Assembly: GCF_988243305.1 (NCBI RefSeq)
Contig: NZ_OZ547136.1
Length of the DNA: 64,000 bases
Direction: 5' to 3' (one strand)
Shown: positions 48,577-56,935 of the stretch, piece by piece
How the letters are laid out: every line of letters starts with the position of its first letter
Numbering within the stretch: position 1 is the stretch's first letter
Made by a program: the position numbers and the translations under genes
The notes under the pieces: generated by a model
Told to the model about the DNA's origin: nothing
Databases searched by the model: none
The model's input: only the letters and a program-made list of their open reading frames with translations

Positions 48577-49044
48577 TTATTTCAGGCACTGAGTACGGAT
48601 ATATTCCTGCGCCCCTTCCAGTTGCTTGTGCATCGTCATCAGCCGCTCTCTGAGGGTGAAATAATCCCGTTCAGCGGTGTCTGCCAGTCGGGGGCCGGTT
48701 GCATTATCCACGCGGGCGGTGCCGGTGGCTTCACGCACGGGACCTGGACAGGTGGCGTTGATACGCAGGCGCTTACGACCAGCGGCAACGTCAGCGCGAA
48801 GAGTTTCATTTTCAGCTCTCGCATCGGCTAATTCCCTCGAGTATTTTGCATCGAGCGCAGCAACATCACGCTGACGCATCTGCATGTCAGTAATTGCCGC
48901 GTTCGCCAGCTTCAGTTCTCTGACATTTTTGTCGCGCTGGGCTTTGTAGGTAATGGCGTTATCACGGTAATGATTCAGCCCCAGACTAAGCGCACCACAG
49001 GCCACCAGCATGACAATAATCACCACACACAGAACACGGTTCAT
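48577..49044 (-). CDS. Rz: Spanin inner-membrane subunit Rz
   Basis: ORF 48577..49128 trimmed to the [38 protein letters not shown] start. Confidence 0.9.
48639..48824 (-). CDS. Rz1: Spanin outer-membrane lipoprotein Rz1, embedded in Rz in the +1 frame
   Basis: 61-aa ORF with lipobox (VVSAC) and Pro-rich tail ([30 protein letters not shown]). Confidence 0.85.
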
Positions 49045-49262
49045 ATCACCACCAACGGATTGCCCAGACCAGAACAGCAATGGCCACAATACGAATGGCA
49101 AATGCCATTGCCCGAATAAGTTCAGCACTCATCTTTTTAAAGTTCACGATTTCAGCGCAATGACCAGTTTTGCCAGCCCATATAGCATCGGAGACACAGC
49201 AATACCAACAGCCACCCACTTAATAGCAAAAGCCAGCGCTCTGCTGATGTCATCAGTCACTG

Positions 49263-49394
49263 TCACCCCAGCAGCCCCGACGAAGACAACATCACCCAGG
49301 CGAGGGACAGAAAAAGAGCAACCAGCATTAGTGAAAATGAAATACCGACAATCACACACAGGACCTTTGCCGGCGTTATGAGTTTGTCTGACAT
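49263..49394 (-). CDS. Small hydrophobic peptide (43 aa), hypothetical
   Basis: Hand-translated: MSDKLITPAKVLCVIVGISFSLMLVALFLSLAWVMLSSSGLLG; AGGGG Shine-Dalgarno 6 nt upstream. Overlaps the longer alternative-frame ORF 49144..49416. Confidence 0.3.
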   Translation of the reverse strand: MSDKLITPAKVLCVIVGISFSLMLVALFLSLAWVMLSSSGLLG

Positions 49395-49563
49395 AGCTAC
49401 CCCTTAATTGCCACAATTAACTGGGATACTACCCATAAAAAAGGGATGCTCCAGACCAGCAAAAATTTCCAGTTTGGTAATTGACTAATCATGAGTCGCA
49501 ACTCCCTAATCAGTTTGCTAAAATCAATCAAGGCAGCCTCCCATAGCTTACTGCCATAAAAAC

Positions 49564-49600
49564 AAAACCCCGCTTGCTGCCAACAAACGGGGTTTTTACT
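49564..49600. terminator. Hairpin terminator downstream of R
   Basis: aaaaccccg...cggggttttt with T runs on both strands. Confidence 0.55.
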
Positions 49601-49686: not shown

Positions 49687-50220
49687 TTATCTGTCGATAC
49701 CCCAGCACGCCAGCGCGCTCTCCTGGTCACGACGGGATACCTGACCGTAGCAGTTGTTTGAACGAATACGGCAGTCTCTGCCACCGTCCTTAATCCACCA
49801 GCGAATCGCCTCACACGCTCCCCTGCGGTCACCAGCATTCAGCCGCTTATAAAACGTCGACGGGAAACACTTACCGGGGCCAATGTTATAGGGACAGAAT
49901 GACGCTATACCCGCTTTCTGTGGTTCGGTCAGTGGAACTTTAATATTGCGCTCCACCCATGCCAGCGCCTTATCCCGTTCAATGGCATTAACCTGGTCGC
50001 ATTTTTCCTTCGACAGTTTCATGCCCGGAATAACAGGTTTACCATCCACCATTGTGGCACCGCGGCAGATGGTCCAGATACCCGCACCATCACGGTATGC
50101 CGTTGTGTGGTTACCTTCTTTTTCATCCAGAAACTGGTCGAGAATATCAGGCGCAGGCGCACCGATGGCAATCAACGCCAGAACGGCAGCCGACAGGCCA
50201 TATTTGATTTTGGTGTTCAT
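49687..50220 (-). CDS. R: Endolysin (lysozyme family) with N-terminal signal-anchor-release-like segment
   Basis: 177-aa ORF; N-terminal weakly hydrophobic Gly/Ala-rich segment (LSAAVLALIAIGAPA). Confidence 0.9.
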   Translation of the reverse strand: MNTKIKYGLSAAVLALIAIGAPAPDILDQFLDEKEGNHTTAYRDGAGIWTICRGATMVDGKPVIPGMKLSKEKCDQVNAIERDKALAWVERNIKVPLTEPQKAGIASFCPYNIGPGKCFPSTFYKRLNAGDRRGACEAIRWWIKDGGRDCRIRSNNCYGQVSRRDQESALACWGIDR

Positions 50221-50276
50221 GGATATTTATCAGGATTTATCGGTTCCGAATCCCTGGATATGTTAAATCTTCAGCC

Positions 50277-50348: not shown

Positions 50349-50663
50349 ATGCATAACGATCAACATAATTATGATTTATGCCTGCAAGCCATAAATGAGC
50401 GGGTAAAATCAGAGTGCCTCTTACTCCTCCCACAAGAACACGATGCAGTAAAATCCATTCAGGCTGAGCCGTATGGACATCTCACACCTGTGACTCTCGG
50501 CATTATCGCCAGAGCATTAACACAGCCCATGCTTATGCGTATTAAGACCAATATAAATAACTGGTTGAATGAAGAATTAAGCTACCTTGATTGTGAGTGG
50601 GACAATCATTACGCAAAAACACAAAAAGAACGCATCTTCAGTCGATTATCCAGCAACAGATAA
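50349..50663 (+). CDS. Hypothetical protein (104 aa), antisense to the late operon
   Basis: ORF with GAGGA Shine-Dalgarno 7 nt upstream; AT-rich codon usage; no family recognised. Confidence 0.45.
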   Translation: MHNDQHNYDLCLQAINERVKSECLLLLPQEHDAVKSIQAEPYGHLTPVTLGIIARALTQPMLMRIKTNINNWLNEELSYLDCEWDNHYAKTQKERIFSRLSSNR

Positions 50664-50672
50664 CGAGCCACC

Positions 50673-51479
50673 TTATATACGCCCTTTCAGATAAGTCATC
50701 CCCGGCTGCATCCAGTCAACAGGTGCTTTCTTAAAGGGCGTATTATCAAAATCACGCAGAAGAGCCTCCAGCACAACTGCATCATTGTCAGCACCACTGG
50801 CCATCATTTCAATCTCAGCTGCTACCTGCAGATATCCCATGCAACGACCAATGCGCTTCATCAGCCCCTGCTTTTTATTGTTCTTCAGGTAATCAATGGC
50901 AAATTCAATGAGCGCCTCACTATGCTGGTGCGATGGCGGTGTTAATTTCCCATTTTCTGAGATGGTTATTTTCCCGCCATCTCCGTATACAACAAAGGAT
51001 GGCCGGTTACACTCCCATTCCTGATCTTTATCAGGTGCAGACGCAATAAAATAACGTTTATTTCCTTCCTCTCCGGCACTTTTAACCGTAATGGAGTACT
51101 CAGACTGCAGACAAGACGCCTCTTTTTCTGACCGCAGTGTTGACGGCGGCATCTTCAGAGAACCAGTAATTCTTCCCGGTAGCTTTCCTTTGTAGGTTAT
51201 CAACACATCCTGCGCCTCTAAAATTATGGGGCGCTTTTCCGGCGACAGCTCATCCCCTTCACATAACCCGGCAGCAACATCCAGGAAGACCTGTCTGATG
51301 CTCCTTCTGGCTGCTGCCTCATAAAACTCCAGCGCGGCACCTTCAACACGGTCCAGCGAGATGTCCAGGTCAAAAATTTCACCGTCAAAGCGTTTTTTGT
51401 CCCGTAACGCTAAAGTTACCGTAACTTTATTCTCAAAATTGCGGATCCCTTTCACAATCAGTTCATAGTTTTGAGTCAT
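50673..51479 (-). CDS. Hypothetical protein (268 aa) inserted between holin and endolysin
   Basis: Start is 4 nt after the S stop (GAGTAATTCAATG) with GGGGAGAG Shine-Dalgarno inside the end of S; soluble; no family recognised. Confidence 0.6.
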   Translation of the reverse strand: MTQNYELIVKGIRNFENKVTVTLALRDKKRFDGEIFDLDISLDRVEGAALEFYEAAARRSIRQVFLDVAAGLCEGDELSPEKRPIILEAQDVLITYKGKLPGRITGSLKMPPSTLRSEKEASCLQSEYSITVKSAGEEGNKRYFIASAPDKDQEWECNRPSFVVYGDGGKITISENGKLTPPSHQHSEALIEFAIDYLKNNKKQGLMKRIGRCMGYLQVAAEIEMMASGADNDAVVLEALLRDFDNTPFKKAPVDWMQPGMTYLKGRI

Positions 51480-51483
51480 TGAA

Positions 51484-51699
51484 TTACTCTCCCCGTGCAG
51501 CCTTACGACGGTCCTCTCTGATTTTGAAATACAGGTTAGTCAGATATGTCAGCAGCCCAAACAGCAGACTCCCCAGCACGCCTATTGCCGCCCACTGAGA
51601 CGGGGAAACCCTGTCCAGCAACTGCAGGAACCAGTAGCCCGTTCCCACCGCTGACGTGGTGTATGACACACCTGTTGTGATTTTTTCCATCTGGTACAT
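51484..51699 (-). CDS. S: Holin, phage 21 S-type (pinholin-like), with dual-start motif
   Basis: ORF 51484..51777 trimmed to [10 protein letters not shown]...; two TM segments; C-terminus [19 protein letters not shown]. Confidence 0.85.
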
Positions 51700-51849
51700 A
51701 CCCCGTCTCCCGTTATCCGGAAGCTGACAACAATAAAAAAAGCCACCAGTTAAGTACTGATGGCTCTGATAACTCATGCAGGCATCTCAGACGACCCACT
51801 GACACTACCGGTGAGTTTAACGATACCTTCCATTTGACTGGCTCACTTT

Positions 51850-53703
51850 TTATGATGATGCCGGTGCATTTATCTCCAGCACCAGACTTTCTATCTCAAC
51901 GCCATACGCTGCATTTTTGGTAATATCCGTCAGCGTCAGCGCATTCAGCCCCAGTGTCAGACTGTCTTTTATGACCTGGAATGCCGGGCCAGCCACTCCA
52001 TTCAGTTTCGGAGTAACCGTGGCACTGCCGGCGGTGAACACCAGTTCCAGCGTCTGCCAGTCATTACTGTAATTCCCGAACTCGCCCAACTTTGTGTTTC
52101 CTGCTTTCTTGTGATGCATCAGATTCAGTTTGCCGTCTGTGGTCTGGGTGAAGAACGACATCAGGAACGGGTTACCAGTCCCGGCCATCGCCACGACGTC
52201 AGGTAACGCTACATCGGTATACAGATAAATTCCCAGGCCGAACTGGTTGTTGGTCAGTGCGCCTGACAGTCGAAACTTACAGCTCAGTCTGCCACCCCGT
52301 GTCAGCAGGGAGACTGCGTCATCCACCGGATGCATCAGGGACCAGGTTTTATTGCTCTGCTTGGCGATCTTAAATACACCACCCGACAACTGAATTCCGC
52401 CGTCCTTAATGGTCCAGCCCTGCGCAGCAGCCTCTCCGGCTGTCGGCAACAGGGAGATTGTGCGTACGGATGCATCTTCAGACGGCCCCGATGGCGTGTT
52501 GCCGCCGGGCGAGGGTTTGATTTCCGGTGCCTTACCACTGATGAAAGCTGAGGTGCGCCCGGCTGCGTTCAGAATAGCGGTTGCCATACGATCCGGAATA
52601 ATGCTCCTGCGCGCCCATGAACTGAAATGTGTCGGGCGGTTTGATGATACCTGGTTTCCATTCGTTCTCGATGCCGCACCGTAATATCCTGATGCCGGAA
52701 TATCCGGATCTTCTGCCGGTGCGTTAGTGGCGGTATTGACGCCGTTACCGTCTGTCATGAAGGGCACAAAATAAACGCCCTCACTCTCCCTGTTTTTATA
52801 CCCGCCGTACACGGTGTCGTACTGGGTAGCGTATGTATTTTTCCAGTAATACGTCGTGTCACCACAAATCCACGGCACATTTACAGCACTACCACCATGA
52901 CACTGCGCGTTAAACACAGTGAGGTCAGCACGAAACTGCTTCAGCATGGCTGTAAACAGCGCAGGTTGCTGTGCGTAGGTGGCGGCGTTCATGTCAAACT
53001 CTCCCTGCATCCAGCACACCGCCAGCAACACATTTTTCGGGTTCTTCTGTAATGCAGCTTTAGTGCGCGCAATCAGGTCCTGATATAACGGTTTACCCAC
53101 ACCCCAGCGTGCCGAATCCTGGCTGGCCCCCGCGTCCGCACTGAATGTCCCCTCCGCGCCCTTGGTGAATGCCGAACCACCACGACAGCATGGTACCAGC
53201 AGGATCCCCGCGTTATTCGGGATATACGGGAGCAGTTTTTTGGCAATATGTAAGCCCTGGCCGACACAGCCGTACTGCCCTTTGCTCAGGTCTGCCTTCG
53301 GATGATTCAGCGTACTCATATCCTGCACATCATGCAGACAGTGGTCAGCCGGGATGATGTCGTTATACGTACAACTCTCTCCACCCGGAGTTACCGTGCT
53401 GCGGCGCGCCAGCTGTTTAATGCGCGGATCCGGAGCATCGTAAGAATCCGGTAACGGAAGCCCTTCACCGTAGGCCATGCCGTTGGACTGTCCGGCAAGC
53501 ACAACCACGTAGAACCAGTCCGGCTCAGATGAAGGGCCGACCTGTGGATCTCCTTCAATAGCCACCGCCTGCATCAGTGTGTACGGCGTAATGGCAACCG
53601 GTCCGCCATATGGCTGCCAGCCCTCTTTCAGTTTGTGTGTCAGCTTTTCCGCAAGGTCTGACGGCGACGCCGCCCTGACAACATCATAGTGTTTAAATGC
53701 CAT
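51850..53703 (-). CDS. Prophage sialate O-acetylesterase (NanS-p / YjhS-like)
   Basis: 617-aa ORF in the position this gene holds in Stx-type phages, between the tRNA cluster and S. Confidence 0.8.
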   Translation of the reverse strand: MAFKHYDVVRAASPSDLAEKLTHKLKEGWQPYGGPVAITPYTLMQAVAIEGDPQVGPSSEPDWFYVVVLAGQSNGMAYGEGLPLPDSYDAPDPRIKQLARRSTVTPGGESCTYNDIIPADHCLHDVQDMSTLNHPKADLSKGQYGCVGQGLHIAKKLLPYIPNNAGILLVPCCRGGSAFTKGAEGTFSADAGASQDSARWGVGKPLYQDLIARTKAALQKNPKNVLLAVCWMQGEFDMNAATYAQQPALFTAMLKQFRADLTVFNAQCHGGSAVNVPWICGDTTYYWKNTYATQYDTVYGGYKNRESEGVYFVPFMTDGNGVNTATNAPAEDPDIPASGYYGAASRTNGNQVSSNRPTHFSSWARRSIIPDRMATAILNAAGRTSAFISGKAPEIKPSPGGNTPSGPSEDASVRTISLLPTAGEAAAQGWTIKDGGIQLSGGVFKIAKQSNKTWSLMHPVDDAVSLLTRGGRLSCKFRLSGALTNNQFGLGIYLYTDVALPDVVAMAGTGNPFLMSFFTQTTDGKLNLMHHKKAGNTKLGEFGNYSNDWQTLELVFTAGSATVTPKLNGVAGPAFQVIKDSLTLGLNALTLTDITKNAAYGVEIESLVLEINAPASS

Positions 53704-54192
53704 GAATCCTCCCGGCCGGGATAATATTGTGAGTAAAATGAGGAGCGGGCTGAAGTCCGGAAGTTACAGGACAATGGCAGAAGAGAGACAATAGCCCGCA
53801 ATACGAAAAAGGCCGCGCTATTGCGCAGAGTGATTACTGTCAGATATTATTCGCCAGCTGAAATATTACTTCACGTTTTGTTGTTTATTCCTTGCCGCCC
53901 GCGTCTCCCTGCGCGGGATTTTTTTGTCCATAAGAAAGCCCCTCCGGAGAGGGGCTGGAGAGTGGCGCTATGTGCCATTGCATGGTGCCGGGTGCCTCCC
54001 GGTGAATTCAGTACCAGCACCTGAATCCGCGATTATCCCATATACCTACTCGCTGATTGCCCCTCCGCACAGGGGGATTCACCATGCCAGTTTCTTTTAA
54101 CAAACTCCCCGCAAAACAGACAACTGTCAACCGTCTGAATTGTGAGACATTTAAAAAAAAGGCCCGCAAAAGCGAGCCAGGGAAAATAAGTG

Positions 54193-54269
54193 TGGCGCGT
54201 TGTACTGGATTCGAACCAGTGACCGATTGCTTAGAAGGCAATTGCTCTGTCCGGCTGAGCTAACAACGC
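54193..54269 (-). tRNA. argO: tRNA-Arg (anticodon UCU), argO-like
   Basis: Hand-folded cloverleaf; anticodon loop CTTCTAA; T-arm GGTTCGAATCC; 3' CCA encoded. Confidence 0.8.
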
Positions 54270-54282
54270 AGGGTACAGATAA

Positions 54283-54359
54283 TGGACCGCCATCGAGGAC
54301 TCGAACCCCGCGCAACCAGCTTCGAAGGCTGGCGCTCTATCCTGATGAGCTAATGGCGG
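54283..54359 (-). tRNA. argN: tRNA-Arg (anticodon UCG), argN-like
   Basis: Hand-folded; anticodon loop CTTCGAA; T-arm GGTTCGAGTCC; 3' CCA encoded. Confidence 0.75.
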
Positions 54360-54366
54360 TATGTGA

Positions 54367-54438
54367 TGGTGGCCCTTGCTGGATTTGAACCAGCGACCTG
54401 GCGATTATGAGTCGCTCTCACCACTGAGCTAAAGGGCC
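54367..54438 (-). tRNA. ileZ: tRNA with CAU anticodon (Ile2/Met type), ileZ-like
   Basis: Hand-folded; anticodon loop CTCATAA; T-arm GGTTCAAATCC; short D-loop; 3' CCA encoded. Confidence 0.7.
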
Positions 54439-54629: not shown

Positions 54630-55263
54630 GAAACTCGTAGAGCAAAAGTGTTGTTACACTAACTTCGTCACAGGGTTATCCTGCAATACTCAAAATACAC
54701 AATATTTACAAAACTAATAGTATACAAGGCGATCTTTAAGATTTTGTTATAAATTATTGCCTTTCTCCTCTTTCCATGAGCTTTCTGGGTAGCCACAGAA
54801 TTCCGGGTACAGAAAAACCCGCTCAGCGGCGGGTTTAAGCTGTGTGACGAAGTAACCACTCTTAACAGCATAACCAATTTTTTACGTACGTAAACCACTA
54901 AATGATATTTGCGAGAATGCTACCGAGTATTGAAAACACCACTACAAATACATAAGCAAATCTCAACAAATAACCAACAAATAATTTCCAGTGTTATTTT
55001 TAGCCGGTTTAAATTGAACCTTCAAATTATAGAGCACTTATAAATAACAGCCGTTAATATAAATTGGCTAATAGATTTATTTTTATTCAGCCAAGAGCCA
55101 TGAATAGGATTCGATAGAAAAAAGTTCAGATAAAAATAGAGATCTACTTCACAAATCAAACGAGAAACCAAAACTAACATCTTGAAATAATCACATTGAT
55201 TAGATGAATATTTATCGCGCAGTGACATCATTTTTTAATAATAGTTCAAAAAAAGGGCTCACG

Positions 55264-56346
55264 ATGAAAAAATTAACAGTGGCAATTTCTGCTGTAGCTG
55301 CATCAGTACTGATGGCGATGTCTGCTCAGGCAGCTGAAATTTATAATAAAGACAGTAACAAGCTGGATCTGTACGGGAAAGTTAATGCTAAGCACTATTT
55401 CTCCTCTAATGATGCAGATGATGGTGATACTACTTATGCCCGTCTTGGCTTCAAAGGTGAAACCCAAATCAACGATCAACTGACTGGTTTCGGTCAGTGG
55501 GAATATGAATTCAAAGGCAACCGCGCTGAATCTCAAGGTTCCTCCAAAGATAAAACCCGTCTTGCCTTCGCTGGCCTGAAATTCGGTGACTACGGCTCAA
55601 TCGATTACGGCCGTAACTACGGTGTAGCATACGACATCGGTGCGTGGACTGACGTTCTGCCAGAATTCGGTGGCGATACCTGGACCCAAACAGATGTGTT
55701 CATGACTGGTCGCACCACTGGTGTTGCAACTTATCGTAACAACGACTTCTTTGGTCTGGTTGATGGTCTGAACTTTGCTGCTCAGTATCAGGGTAAAAAT
55801 GACCGCACTGACGTAACTGAAGCTAATGGTGATGGTTTCGGTTTCTCCACTACTTATGAGTATGAAGGATTCGGTGTAGGTGCAACCTATGCTAAATCTG
55901 ACCGCACTAATAATCAGGTTATCTACGGTAACAACAGCCTGAATGCATCTGGTCAAAATGCTGAAGTATGGGCAGCTGGTCTGAAATATGATGCGAACAA
56001 CATCTATCTGGCTACCACCTATTCTGAAACCCAGAACATGACTGTTTTTGGTAATAACCATATTGCCAACAAAGCACAAAACTTCGAAGTAGTTGCACAA
56101 TATCAGTTCGACTTCGGTCTGCGTCCGTCCGTTGCTTACCTGCAATCTAAAGGAAAAGACTTGGGTGCGTGGGGTGATCAGGACCTGGTTGAATATATTG
56201 ATGTAGGTGCAACCTATTACTTCAACAAAAATATGTCCACTTTTGTTGATTACAAAATCAACCTGATTGATAAGAGCGATTTCACGAAAGCATCTGGCGT
56301 TGCTACCGATGATATCGTTGCTGTAGGTATGGTTTACCAGTTCTAA
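55264..56346 (+). CDS. Prophage-encoded OmpC/OmpF-family porin (NmpC/Lc-like)
   Basis: ORF 55204..56346 trimmed to the [23 protein letters not shown] signal peptide; ends in ...VGMVYQF; opposite strand to the late operon. Confidence 0.9.
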
Positions 56347-56534: not shown

Positions 56535-56918
56535 TTAATTAGAGTTATTAACAACGATATCCATCTCTAACCGGATATCTAATGCCATTAACATCCCTTC
56601 AATTATGCCCTCAGCCTTCTGTAACCTTTTCCCGATATAACCATCAGAGCAGCAATGCTTACCTGCCAGTGACATGAATGTCATACCGACTACATAATAA
56701 TCTACTAATAAATCGTGCAAATCGCTGTTGTTCTTTTTCAGACGGGCCATGCACCCGCAAATAATCATCGCGTCATCGTCACAACATTGCGGGCGAGATT
56801 TTACTTTTGAAGTAATTAATCCCTTAAAACCGGCGGCAATGGACGACCAGGTCACATCTTCATGATTATTAGCCGCCCACGCTCCCCAGCGTTCGAGAAC
56901 CATCTGAATATCACGCAT
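56535..56918 (-). CDS. Q: Late gene antiterminator Q (QuuD-like)
   Basis: ORF 56535..56933 trimmed to [22 protein letters not shown]...; Cys-rich zinc-binding region. Confidence 0.85.
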
Positions 56919-56935
56919 CAACTTTCTCCACAAAA

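Follow-up and report, generated by a model that had tools for sequence, protein, structure and literature searches.

A predicted pinholin and SAR-endolysin cassette with a chargeless dual start and a split S–R junction in an Escherichia coli lambdoid prophage

Lysis genes and their neighbourhood

The window analysed here, a 64,000-nucleotide stretch of contig NZ_OZ547136.1 from RefSeq assembly GCF_988243305.1, carries a set of lysis genes on its minus strand. The S gene (51484..51699, minus strand) encodes a class II holin of 71 aa that belongs to the phage 21 S family and is a predicted pinholin. Translation of the reverse complement yielded an intact 71-codon ORF that opens with ATG TAC CAG ATG. 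The first ATG (51699..51697) and the fourth codon, again ATG (51690..51688), share a frame and are spaced by three codons, so that direct reading of 51688..51699 (minus strand) gives two in-frame starts, Met1-Tyr2-Gln3-Met4, the second of which defines a 68-aa short form. A sequence-only reading of the same DNA had proposed these coordinates, this strand and a Met-Tyr-Gln-Met start, and re-translation reproduced them exactly. A longer, 97-aa ORF from an ATG at 51777 was rejected as an artefact of mechanical ORF listing: its extension, which is not conserved among relatives, crosses both the ribosome-binding region and a terminator-like hairpin.

S matched the Pfam family PF04971 ('Bacteriophage P21 holin S') with an E-value of 9e-33 and a score of 112.5 bits (cut-off 26) over profile positions 1-63 of 64, and also matched PHROG holin families. 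Using tblastn, we found S with 100% identity in 74 phage records, including Stx2a phages and Shigella phage POCJ13, and at 95% identity or higher in a further 200; identity to a phage-21-type S was 76%. The hydropathy profile contains two hydrophobic segments, at residues 8-28 and 36-58, followed by a highly charged tail with six basic and three acidic residues among the C-terminal 13. The predicted TMD1 (residues 8-28; 51616..51678, minus strand) is weakly hydrophobic and SAR-like by composition, with Gly, Ala, Ser or Thr at 11 of 21 positions and a mean Kyte-Doolittle value of 0.53 compared to 1.48 in TMD2. Its summed insertion cost is 6.2 compared to 0.8 for TMD2, which is comparable to a phage-21-type S. 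TMD2 (residues 36-58; 51526..51594, minus strand) carries G40xxxS44xxxG48. An alignment of 17 family sequences shows no variation at G40 or S44 and at least 90% conservation of G48, and the window S has all three. This face of TMD2 reportedly plays a role in pinhole packing. The N-terminal E5/K6 pair is conserved in the same alignment. S is a class II holin whose predicted topology is the SAR-TMD1 architecture of the S21 pinholin, and comparative studies have already placed Stx-phage holins in the pinholin class, together with SAR endolysins (PMC8136144; PMC10462455).

The R gene (49687..50220, minus strand) encodes a 177-aa GH24 lysozyme (PF00959), which we assign to the 933W/Qin type of SAR endolysins; the deposited PGAP annotation of the pair in a related E. 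coli genome is 'class II holin family protein' and 'lysozyme'. The N-terminus of R, MNTKIKYGLSAAVLALIAIGAPAPD, has two Lys followed by an 18-residue hydrophobic stretch. This stretch is the predicted SAR segment (residues 7-24, YGLSAAVLALIAIGAPAP; 50149..50202, minus strand), which is preceded by K4 and K6, contains Gly, Ala or Ser at nine of its 18 positions and is conserved among R variants; residues 1-30 contain no Cys. A sequence search of the PDB retrieved R21 (3HDE/3HDF) and DLP12 RrrD (4ZPU), and the catalytic triad, E35-x8-D44-x5-T50, aligns to that of R21 and is invariant in 11 homologues. An AlphaFold2 model of R (pLDDT 86.5, with residues 11-30 at 94-96) superposed over 174-183 columns on full-length R21 (3HDE) and DLP12 (4ZPU), compared to only 140 columns on the SAR-less R21 fragment 3HDF, and it confidently set residues 11-35 on the catalytic body, as in full-length R21. 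The model is consistent with control of R by R21-type refolding and not by the disulfide caging of P1 Lyz. Across 11 diverse S loci (the window and ten homologues), each S was paired with an N-terminally hydrophobic GH24 lysozyme, and these partners fall into either the 165-aa R21 subfamily or the 177-aa subfamily of the window R. The earlier proposal of a phage 21-type lysis logic, with a signal-anchor-like segment at the start of R, therefore stands: S belongs to PF04971, R is an R21/933W-type GH24 lysozyme and, at the sequence level, a hydrophobic segment rich in Ala and Gly comes after K4 and K6.

Rather than a membrane-tethered SAR enzyme, R might be a lysozyme that is secreted in the conventional way and has a cleavable signal peptide. 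Its core, LSAAVLALIAIGA, has a Kyte-Doolittle value of about 2.1 across 15 residues, which is fairly hydrophobic, and is followed by an Ala-Pro-Ala that resembles an A-x-A motif. Direct reading, however, places a proline (Pro22, Pro24) after each A-x-A-like site, so that every candidate -3/-1 site has Pro at +1. Signal peptidase I does not process sites with Pro at this position, a sequence rule that argues against cleavage of R. The corresponding G-A-[PS]-A-P motif was present in every E. coli R variant collected, and one Erwinia homologue has A-P-A-S instead. The packing of residues 11-35 onto the catalytic body in the AlphaFold2 model also speaks against conventional secretion, as does the treatment of the 933W R, 93% identical to that of the window, as a SAR endolysin: the Young laboratory lists it as a SAR endolysin construct and has used it in release assays (PMC9239132). 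We consider a cleaved R extremely improbable and read the protein as a putative SAR endolysin below.

Downstream, the i-spanin gene Rz (48577..49044, minus strand; PF03245, E = 3.5e-51) begins at an ATG at 49044, in agreement with the PGAP call in a related genome. The gene for the o-spanin lipoprotein Rz1 (48639..48824, minus strand; PF06085, E = 4.3e-21) lies inside Rz in the +1 frame and encodes a lipobox-like LVVSAC. Between R and Rz are four tiny ORFs (49046..49492, minus strand) of 31 aa (49397..49492), 43 aa (49263..49394), 40 aa (49144..49266) and 28 aa (49046..49132), all on the minus strand, with starts and stops that overlap or abut. Each encodes one hydrophobic helix. They correspond to PHROGs 6632, 4906, 3246/1115 and 4493, all of unknown function, and had no match in a Pfam search; a related E. 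coli genome has three of the four annotated as hypothetical. Small membrane peptides in a lysis cassette could modulate lysis.

The minus strand also has two terminator-like hairpins. One, with a 12-pair stem followed by the U-run TTTTATTGTT, lies between nanS-p and S (51739..51767), and the other, a strong hairpin with a 15-pair stem and a T-run, lies just downstream of R (49564..49596). Both are inside the late operon, and Q-modified polymerase presumably reads through them. Upstream of S, the minus strand carries the nanS-p esterase gene (51850..53703), three tRNAs (54193..54438) and Q (56535..56933). A match to the STnc100 sRNA (53926..54116, minus strand; Rfam score of 139 bits, gathering score 47) falls between the tRNA cluster and nanS-p. 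This tRNA-to-nanS-p interval is the position of stx in Stx phages, and there are no stx genes in the window. Between Q and the tRNAs, an OmpC/NmpC-like porin gene (55204..56346, plus strand; PF00267, E = 4e-153) is oriented opposite to late transcription; we take it to resemble lc of phage PA-2 and nmpC of DLP12.

Genes inserted between S and R

Between S and R lie 1,263 nt with two ORFs. The first inserted gene (50673..51479, minus strand) encodes a 268-aa protein with an N-terminal DUF1327/YdfR domain (PF07041, E = 2.4e-41, residues 1-100; PHROG 1085, unknown function). It begins 4 nt past the S stop and uses a Shine-Dalgarno sequence inside the 3' end of S (junction GGGGAGAGTAATTCAATG). The K-12 DUF1327 protein YdfR has been reported to bind RNase E's catalytic domain, and possibly RNA (PMC13232886). 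An AlphaFold2 model of the 268-aa protein reached a pLDDT of only 35 on a 13-row alignment and was unusable. The second inserted gene (50349..50663, plus strand) is a 104-aa ORF that runs antisense to the late operon and has GAGGA as a good ribosome-binding site. It belongs to PHROG 1853 (E = 8e-50; unknown function), appears in the annotation of both Stx2 phage 86 and E. coli genomes, and had no Pfam or PADLOC match; a PADLOC defence-system search covering both inserted genes and nanS-p found nothing.

That inserted genes interrupt the S/R pair had been noted before, and the two ORFs bear this out, yet the split is the majority arrangement for this S allele. We compared gene order in 80 IMG/VR loci carrying the same S (99-100% identical), a sample that shows order and not allele diversity. 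R directly followed S in only eight of the 67 informative loci, and the remaining 59 carried an insert of 374-1,445 nt, DUF1327-like in 56 of the 59. The window layout itself recurred, with 100% identical proteins, in one IMG/VR locus (L048), and 478 complete E. coli genomes have a match to at least 80% of a 6-kb query. Lineages other than the E. coli Stx type have S and R overlapping or abutting.

Immediately downstream of S lies a mosaic hot spot (loci L007-L086), in which the first inserted gene always begins 4 nt past the S stop and takes over the Shine-Dalgarno sequence in the S 3' end. The inserted products are modular, combining a DUF1327 N-domain of ~100 aa with various C-modules; in another form, a coiled-coil N-module (MNHEEMNQRF...) is fused to the C-module found at residues 122-268 of the window protein. 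The 104-aa antisense ORF accompanies long DUF1327 forms in eight IMG/VR loci. The DUF1327 gene and the opposite-strand ORF would, on our reading, be accessory cargo in a recombination hot spot, outside the lysis mechanism.

The start of R varies with what precedes it. We found no recognisable Shine-Dalgarno sequence in the region upstream of the window R (50221..50260, minus strand). In about 50 insert-bearing loci R is preceded by CCTGATAAATATCC-ATG, compared to GGGGAGAGTAAGCTG-ATG where R comes directly after S. The first four codons of R track the junction as well, encoding MN[TA]KI or MSAKI in almost all insert-bearing loci and MSRK[LF] or MNRKL where R abuts S.

Related systems and the proposed lysis pathway

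Among the closest known relatives in the lysis genes themselves is 933W, the Stx2 phage of E. coli O157:H7 EDL933 (AF125520). Its S is identical to that of the window at 70 of 71 residues (99%), Met-Tyr-Gln-Met included, its R, at 93% identity, has the same SAR-like N-terminus, Rz and Rz1 are present, and nanS-p lies upstream. In 933W, however, R begins 4 nt after S and ant lies between R and Rz, whereas the window places the DUF1327 gene and the antisense ORF between its S and R genes, has four tiny hydrophobic ORFs in place of ant, and lacks stx. Stx2-converting phage 86 (NC_008464) shares the order nanS-p, S, a 268-aa YdfR-family gene, the opposite-strand ORF and R, with 91% identity over 76% of the 6-kb query. 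It differs in carrying stx2AB, in having ant between R and Rz, and in the N-terminal allele of its YdfR-family protein (MKKKY... compared to MTQNY... in the window).

Resemblance extends to less similar systems. The S21 protein of phage 21 (S68/S71) shares PF04971, Met1 and Met4, a SAR-like TMD1 and G40xxxS44xxxG48 with the window S, and R21 shares with the window R the GH24 family, E35/D44/T50 and a SAR segment free of Cys. S21 nonetheless begins Met-Lys-Ser-Met, with a basic residue, compared to Met-Tyr-Gln-Met, and the window R is only about 29% identical to R21-type enzymes, its 177-aa subfamily having four extra Cys and a 7-residue insertion. The K-12 cryptic prophage Qin (essQ-ydfR-rrrQ-rzpQ/rzoQ) likewise has a P21-family S, a DUF1327 gene 4 nt past the S stop and a 177-aa R with the same N-terminus; its EssQ, however, starts Met-Lys-Ser-Met, its YdfR is a 103-aa single-domain protein whose gene overlaps rrrQ, and there is no antisense ORF.

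The region is very probably a lysis cassette of the Stx-phage/Qin type from the late operon of a lambdoid E. coli prophage, made up of a pinholin, a SAR endolysin and spanins, with the insert as cargo. What the sequence shows is family membership, near-identity to the S and R of 933W, conserved motifs and gene order. Pinholin/SAR-endolysin logic is an already known system, and the value of recognising it here lies mainly in correct annotation.

In the proposed pathway, Q-antiterminated late transcription would pass the internal terminators, and S would, by homology, build up in the inner membrane with two TMDs. At an allele-specific time the weakly hydrophobic TMD1 would leave the bilayer and become externalised, and TMD2 would oligomerise into pinholes, for which we infer a nanometre-scale size, collapsing the proton-motive force; the holes that define a pinholin measure about 2 nm and depolarise the membrane, but let no folded endolysin through. 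R would be exported by Sec and kept inactive by its uncleaved N-terminal signal-anchor until depolarisation freed it in a presumably PMF-dependent release, upon which the N-terminal segment may, as in R21 and without a SAR cysteine, refold onto the catalytic domain. Rz and Rz1 would then fuse the membranes.

A competing account sees in the cassette the decaying remnant of a cryptic prophage, in which the insert uncoupled R from S and lysis was lost. R does lack both an S-coupled ribosome-binding site and a Shine-Dalgarno sequence of its own, and it lies between a strong terminator and an antisense ORF. Each of the five lysis ORFs is nonetheless intact, the order S, DUF1327 gene, 104-aa ORF and R is also present in the complete genome of Stx2-converting phage 86, and the identical proteins of locus L048 show the same layout in IMG/VR. 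The junction without a Shine-Dalgarno sequence, CCTGATAAATATCC-ATG, is moreover the one conserved across about 50 insert-bearing loci. We regard decay as very unlikely and retain the reading of a lysis cassette with inserted cargo.

Initiation and the dual start of S

The S initiation region (51700..51723, minus strand) combines an SD-like GGGAG (51711..51707), well spaced at 7 nt before the first ATG, with a purine run, GGGGU (51704..51700), directly before it. This tandem layout (GGAGGUGAGG) recurs in Lys- and Arg-bearing alleles. In the centroid fold, GGGAG falls within the 3' arm of a 6-bp hairpin, CUUCCG-GAUAA-CGGGAG (51723..51707). In the dual starts of lambda S107/S105 and S21, a hairpin at the Shine-Dalgarno sequence governs the ratio in which the starts are used, and the longer product delays lysis. 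The pairing probability of the window Shine-Dalgarno sequence was 0.86, which is suggestive only, as it was equalled by 8% of upstream shuffles; for a phage-21-type allele pairing was 1.0 and statistically strong, with 0.5% of shuffles reaching it. Four other alleles (L003, L005, L089 and L091) showed no enrichment of pairing over shuffles. A consensus structure of the start region from 11 alleles (MAFFT and RNAalifold) contained no pairs because hairpin geometries differ between alleles. Translation would probably proceed both from Met1, with GGGAG partly sequestered by the hairpin, and from Met4.

To place this start region in the S family, we surveyed 120 listed cluster representatives, 95 of which have three residues upstream of the short-form Met. 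Met was found at -3 in 94 of the 95 while positions 2-3 varied, which argues for selection on both Met codons and against their pairing by chance. Of the 94 M-x-x-M representatives, just 50 had a Lys or Arg at positions 2-3. Gln occupies position 3 in every one of the remaining 44, position 2 being Tyr, Asp, Asn, His or Phe, and one such allele, M-D-Q-M, which adds a negative charge, heads a cluster of 985 member sequences. Chargeless N-termini of S were also found in Citrobacter, Cronobacter and Franconibacter.

Charge matters to how these starts are interpreted. Reviews ascribe the antiholin character of lambda S107 and of S21-71 to an N-terminus with an additional positively charged residue (PMC9636201; PMC6116005), a working definition of the dual-start motif demands a basic residue between the starts (PMC9671378), and saturation mutagenesis of the S21-68 N-terminus indicated that charge sets the time of TMD1 flipping (preprint 10.1101/2021.04.20.440580). 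Lambda S107/S105 resembles the window S in having two in-frame starts at the extreme N-terminus and an upstream RNA hairpin, but it belongs to an unrelated family, as a class I holin that has three TMDs and forms large holes, and its antiholin depends on Lys2 and a deformylated N-terminus (PMC6116005). Between the two starts of the window S there is only Tyr-Gln, with no basic residue to give the long form extra positive charge.

The suggestion that the two starts yield holin and antiholin isoforms thus holds in part: both Met codons are conserved across the family, but the basic residue between them is missing. Two translation products, of 71 and 68 aa, are likely, and we infer that both starts are used. 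For the long form acting as an antiholin we see roughly even odds, and a holin/antiholin pair from S is no more than plausible. Because the Met-Tyr-Gln extension brings no basic side chain, the long form would at best be a weak inhibitor, perhaps acting through its free alpha-amino group.

Alternatively, the two Met codons might exist without any holin/antiholin pair, with one start used or two similar effectors made, and timing set by expression level alone. We give this reading serious weight, somewhat short of an even chance. The extension without a basic residue fits it, as does the free drift of position 2 among Tyr, Asp, Asn, His and Phe, Asp included, given that the antiholin nature of S107 and S21-71 is credited to the extra positive charge and that N-terminal charge sets TMD1 flipping in S21-68 (preprint 10.1101/2021.04.20.440580). 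Against it, Met1 is kept in all but one of the 95 representatives, the chargeless clade included, and the tandem Shine-Dalgarno layout of the window S is the same as in the Lys/Arg-bearing alleles. The alpha-amino group of a deformylated Met1 could also contribute one positive charge, as for S107 (PMC6116005).

A more specific idea, which we advance tentatively and think rather unlikely, is that the conserved upstream start of the Stx-phage-type clade (M-Y/D/N/H/F-Q-M) has ceased to supply an antiholin that works by charge. Most sequenced Shiga-toxin phages would in that case have pinholins to which the textbook holin/antiholin timing does not apply, and the timing of lysis and toxin release would be set otherwise. 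Candidates would be the alpha-amino or formylation state, the ratio of starts acting as dosage only, and accessory cassette genes, among them the small membrane peptides encoded between R and Rz. A very common S allele lacks the basic residue on which the phage 21 and lambda model of antiholin action depends; lysis timing, and toxin release in Stx phages, may therefore be controlled differently.

A link between the chargeless N-terminus and the insert between S and R was considered and rejected: M-Y-Q-M also occurs with an adjacent R (933W, L003, L090 and the eight IMG/VR loci described above), and EssQ, with M-K-S-M, nevertheless has ydfR inserted after it. Two homologues listed as starting 'MMKM' (L089:1201-1212 and L091:1201-1212) read ATT/ATC-ATG-AAG-ATG; their first 'M' is a gene-caller start at ATT or ATC, which leaves M-K-M, the motif of lambda S, as the true one.
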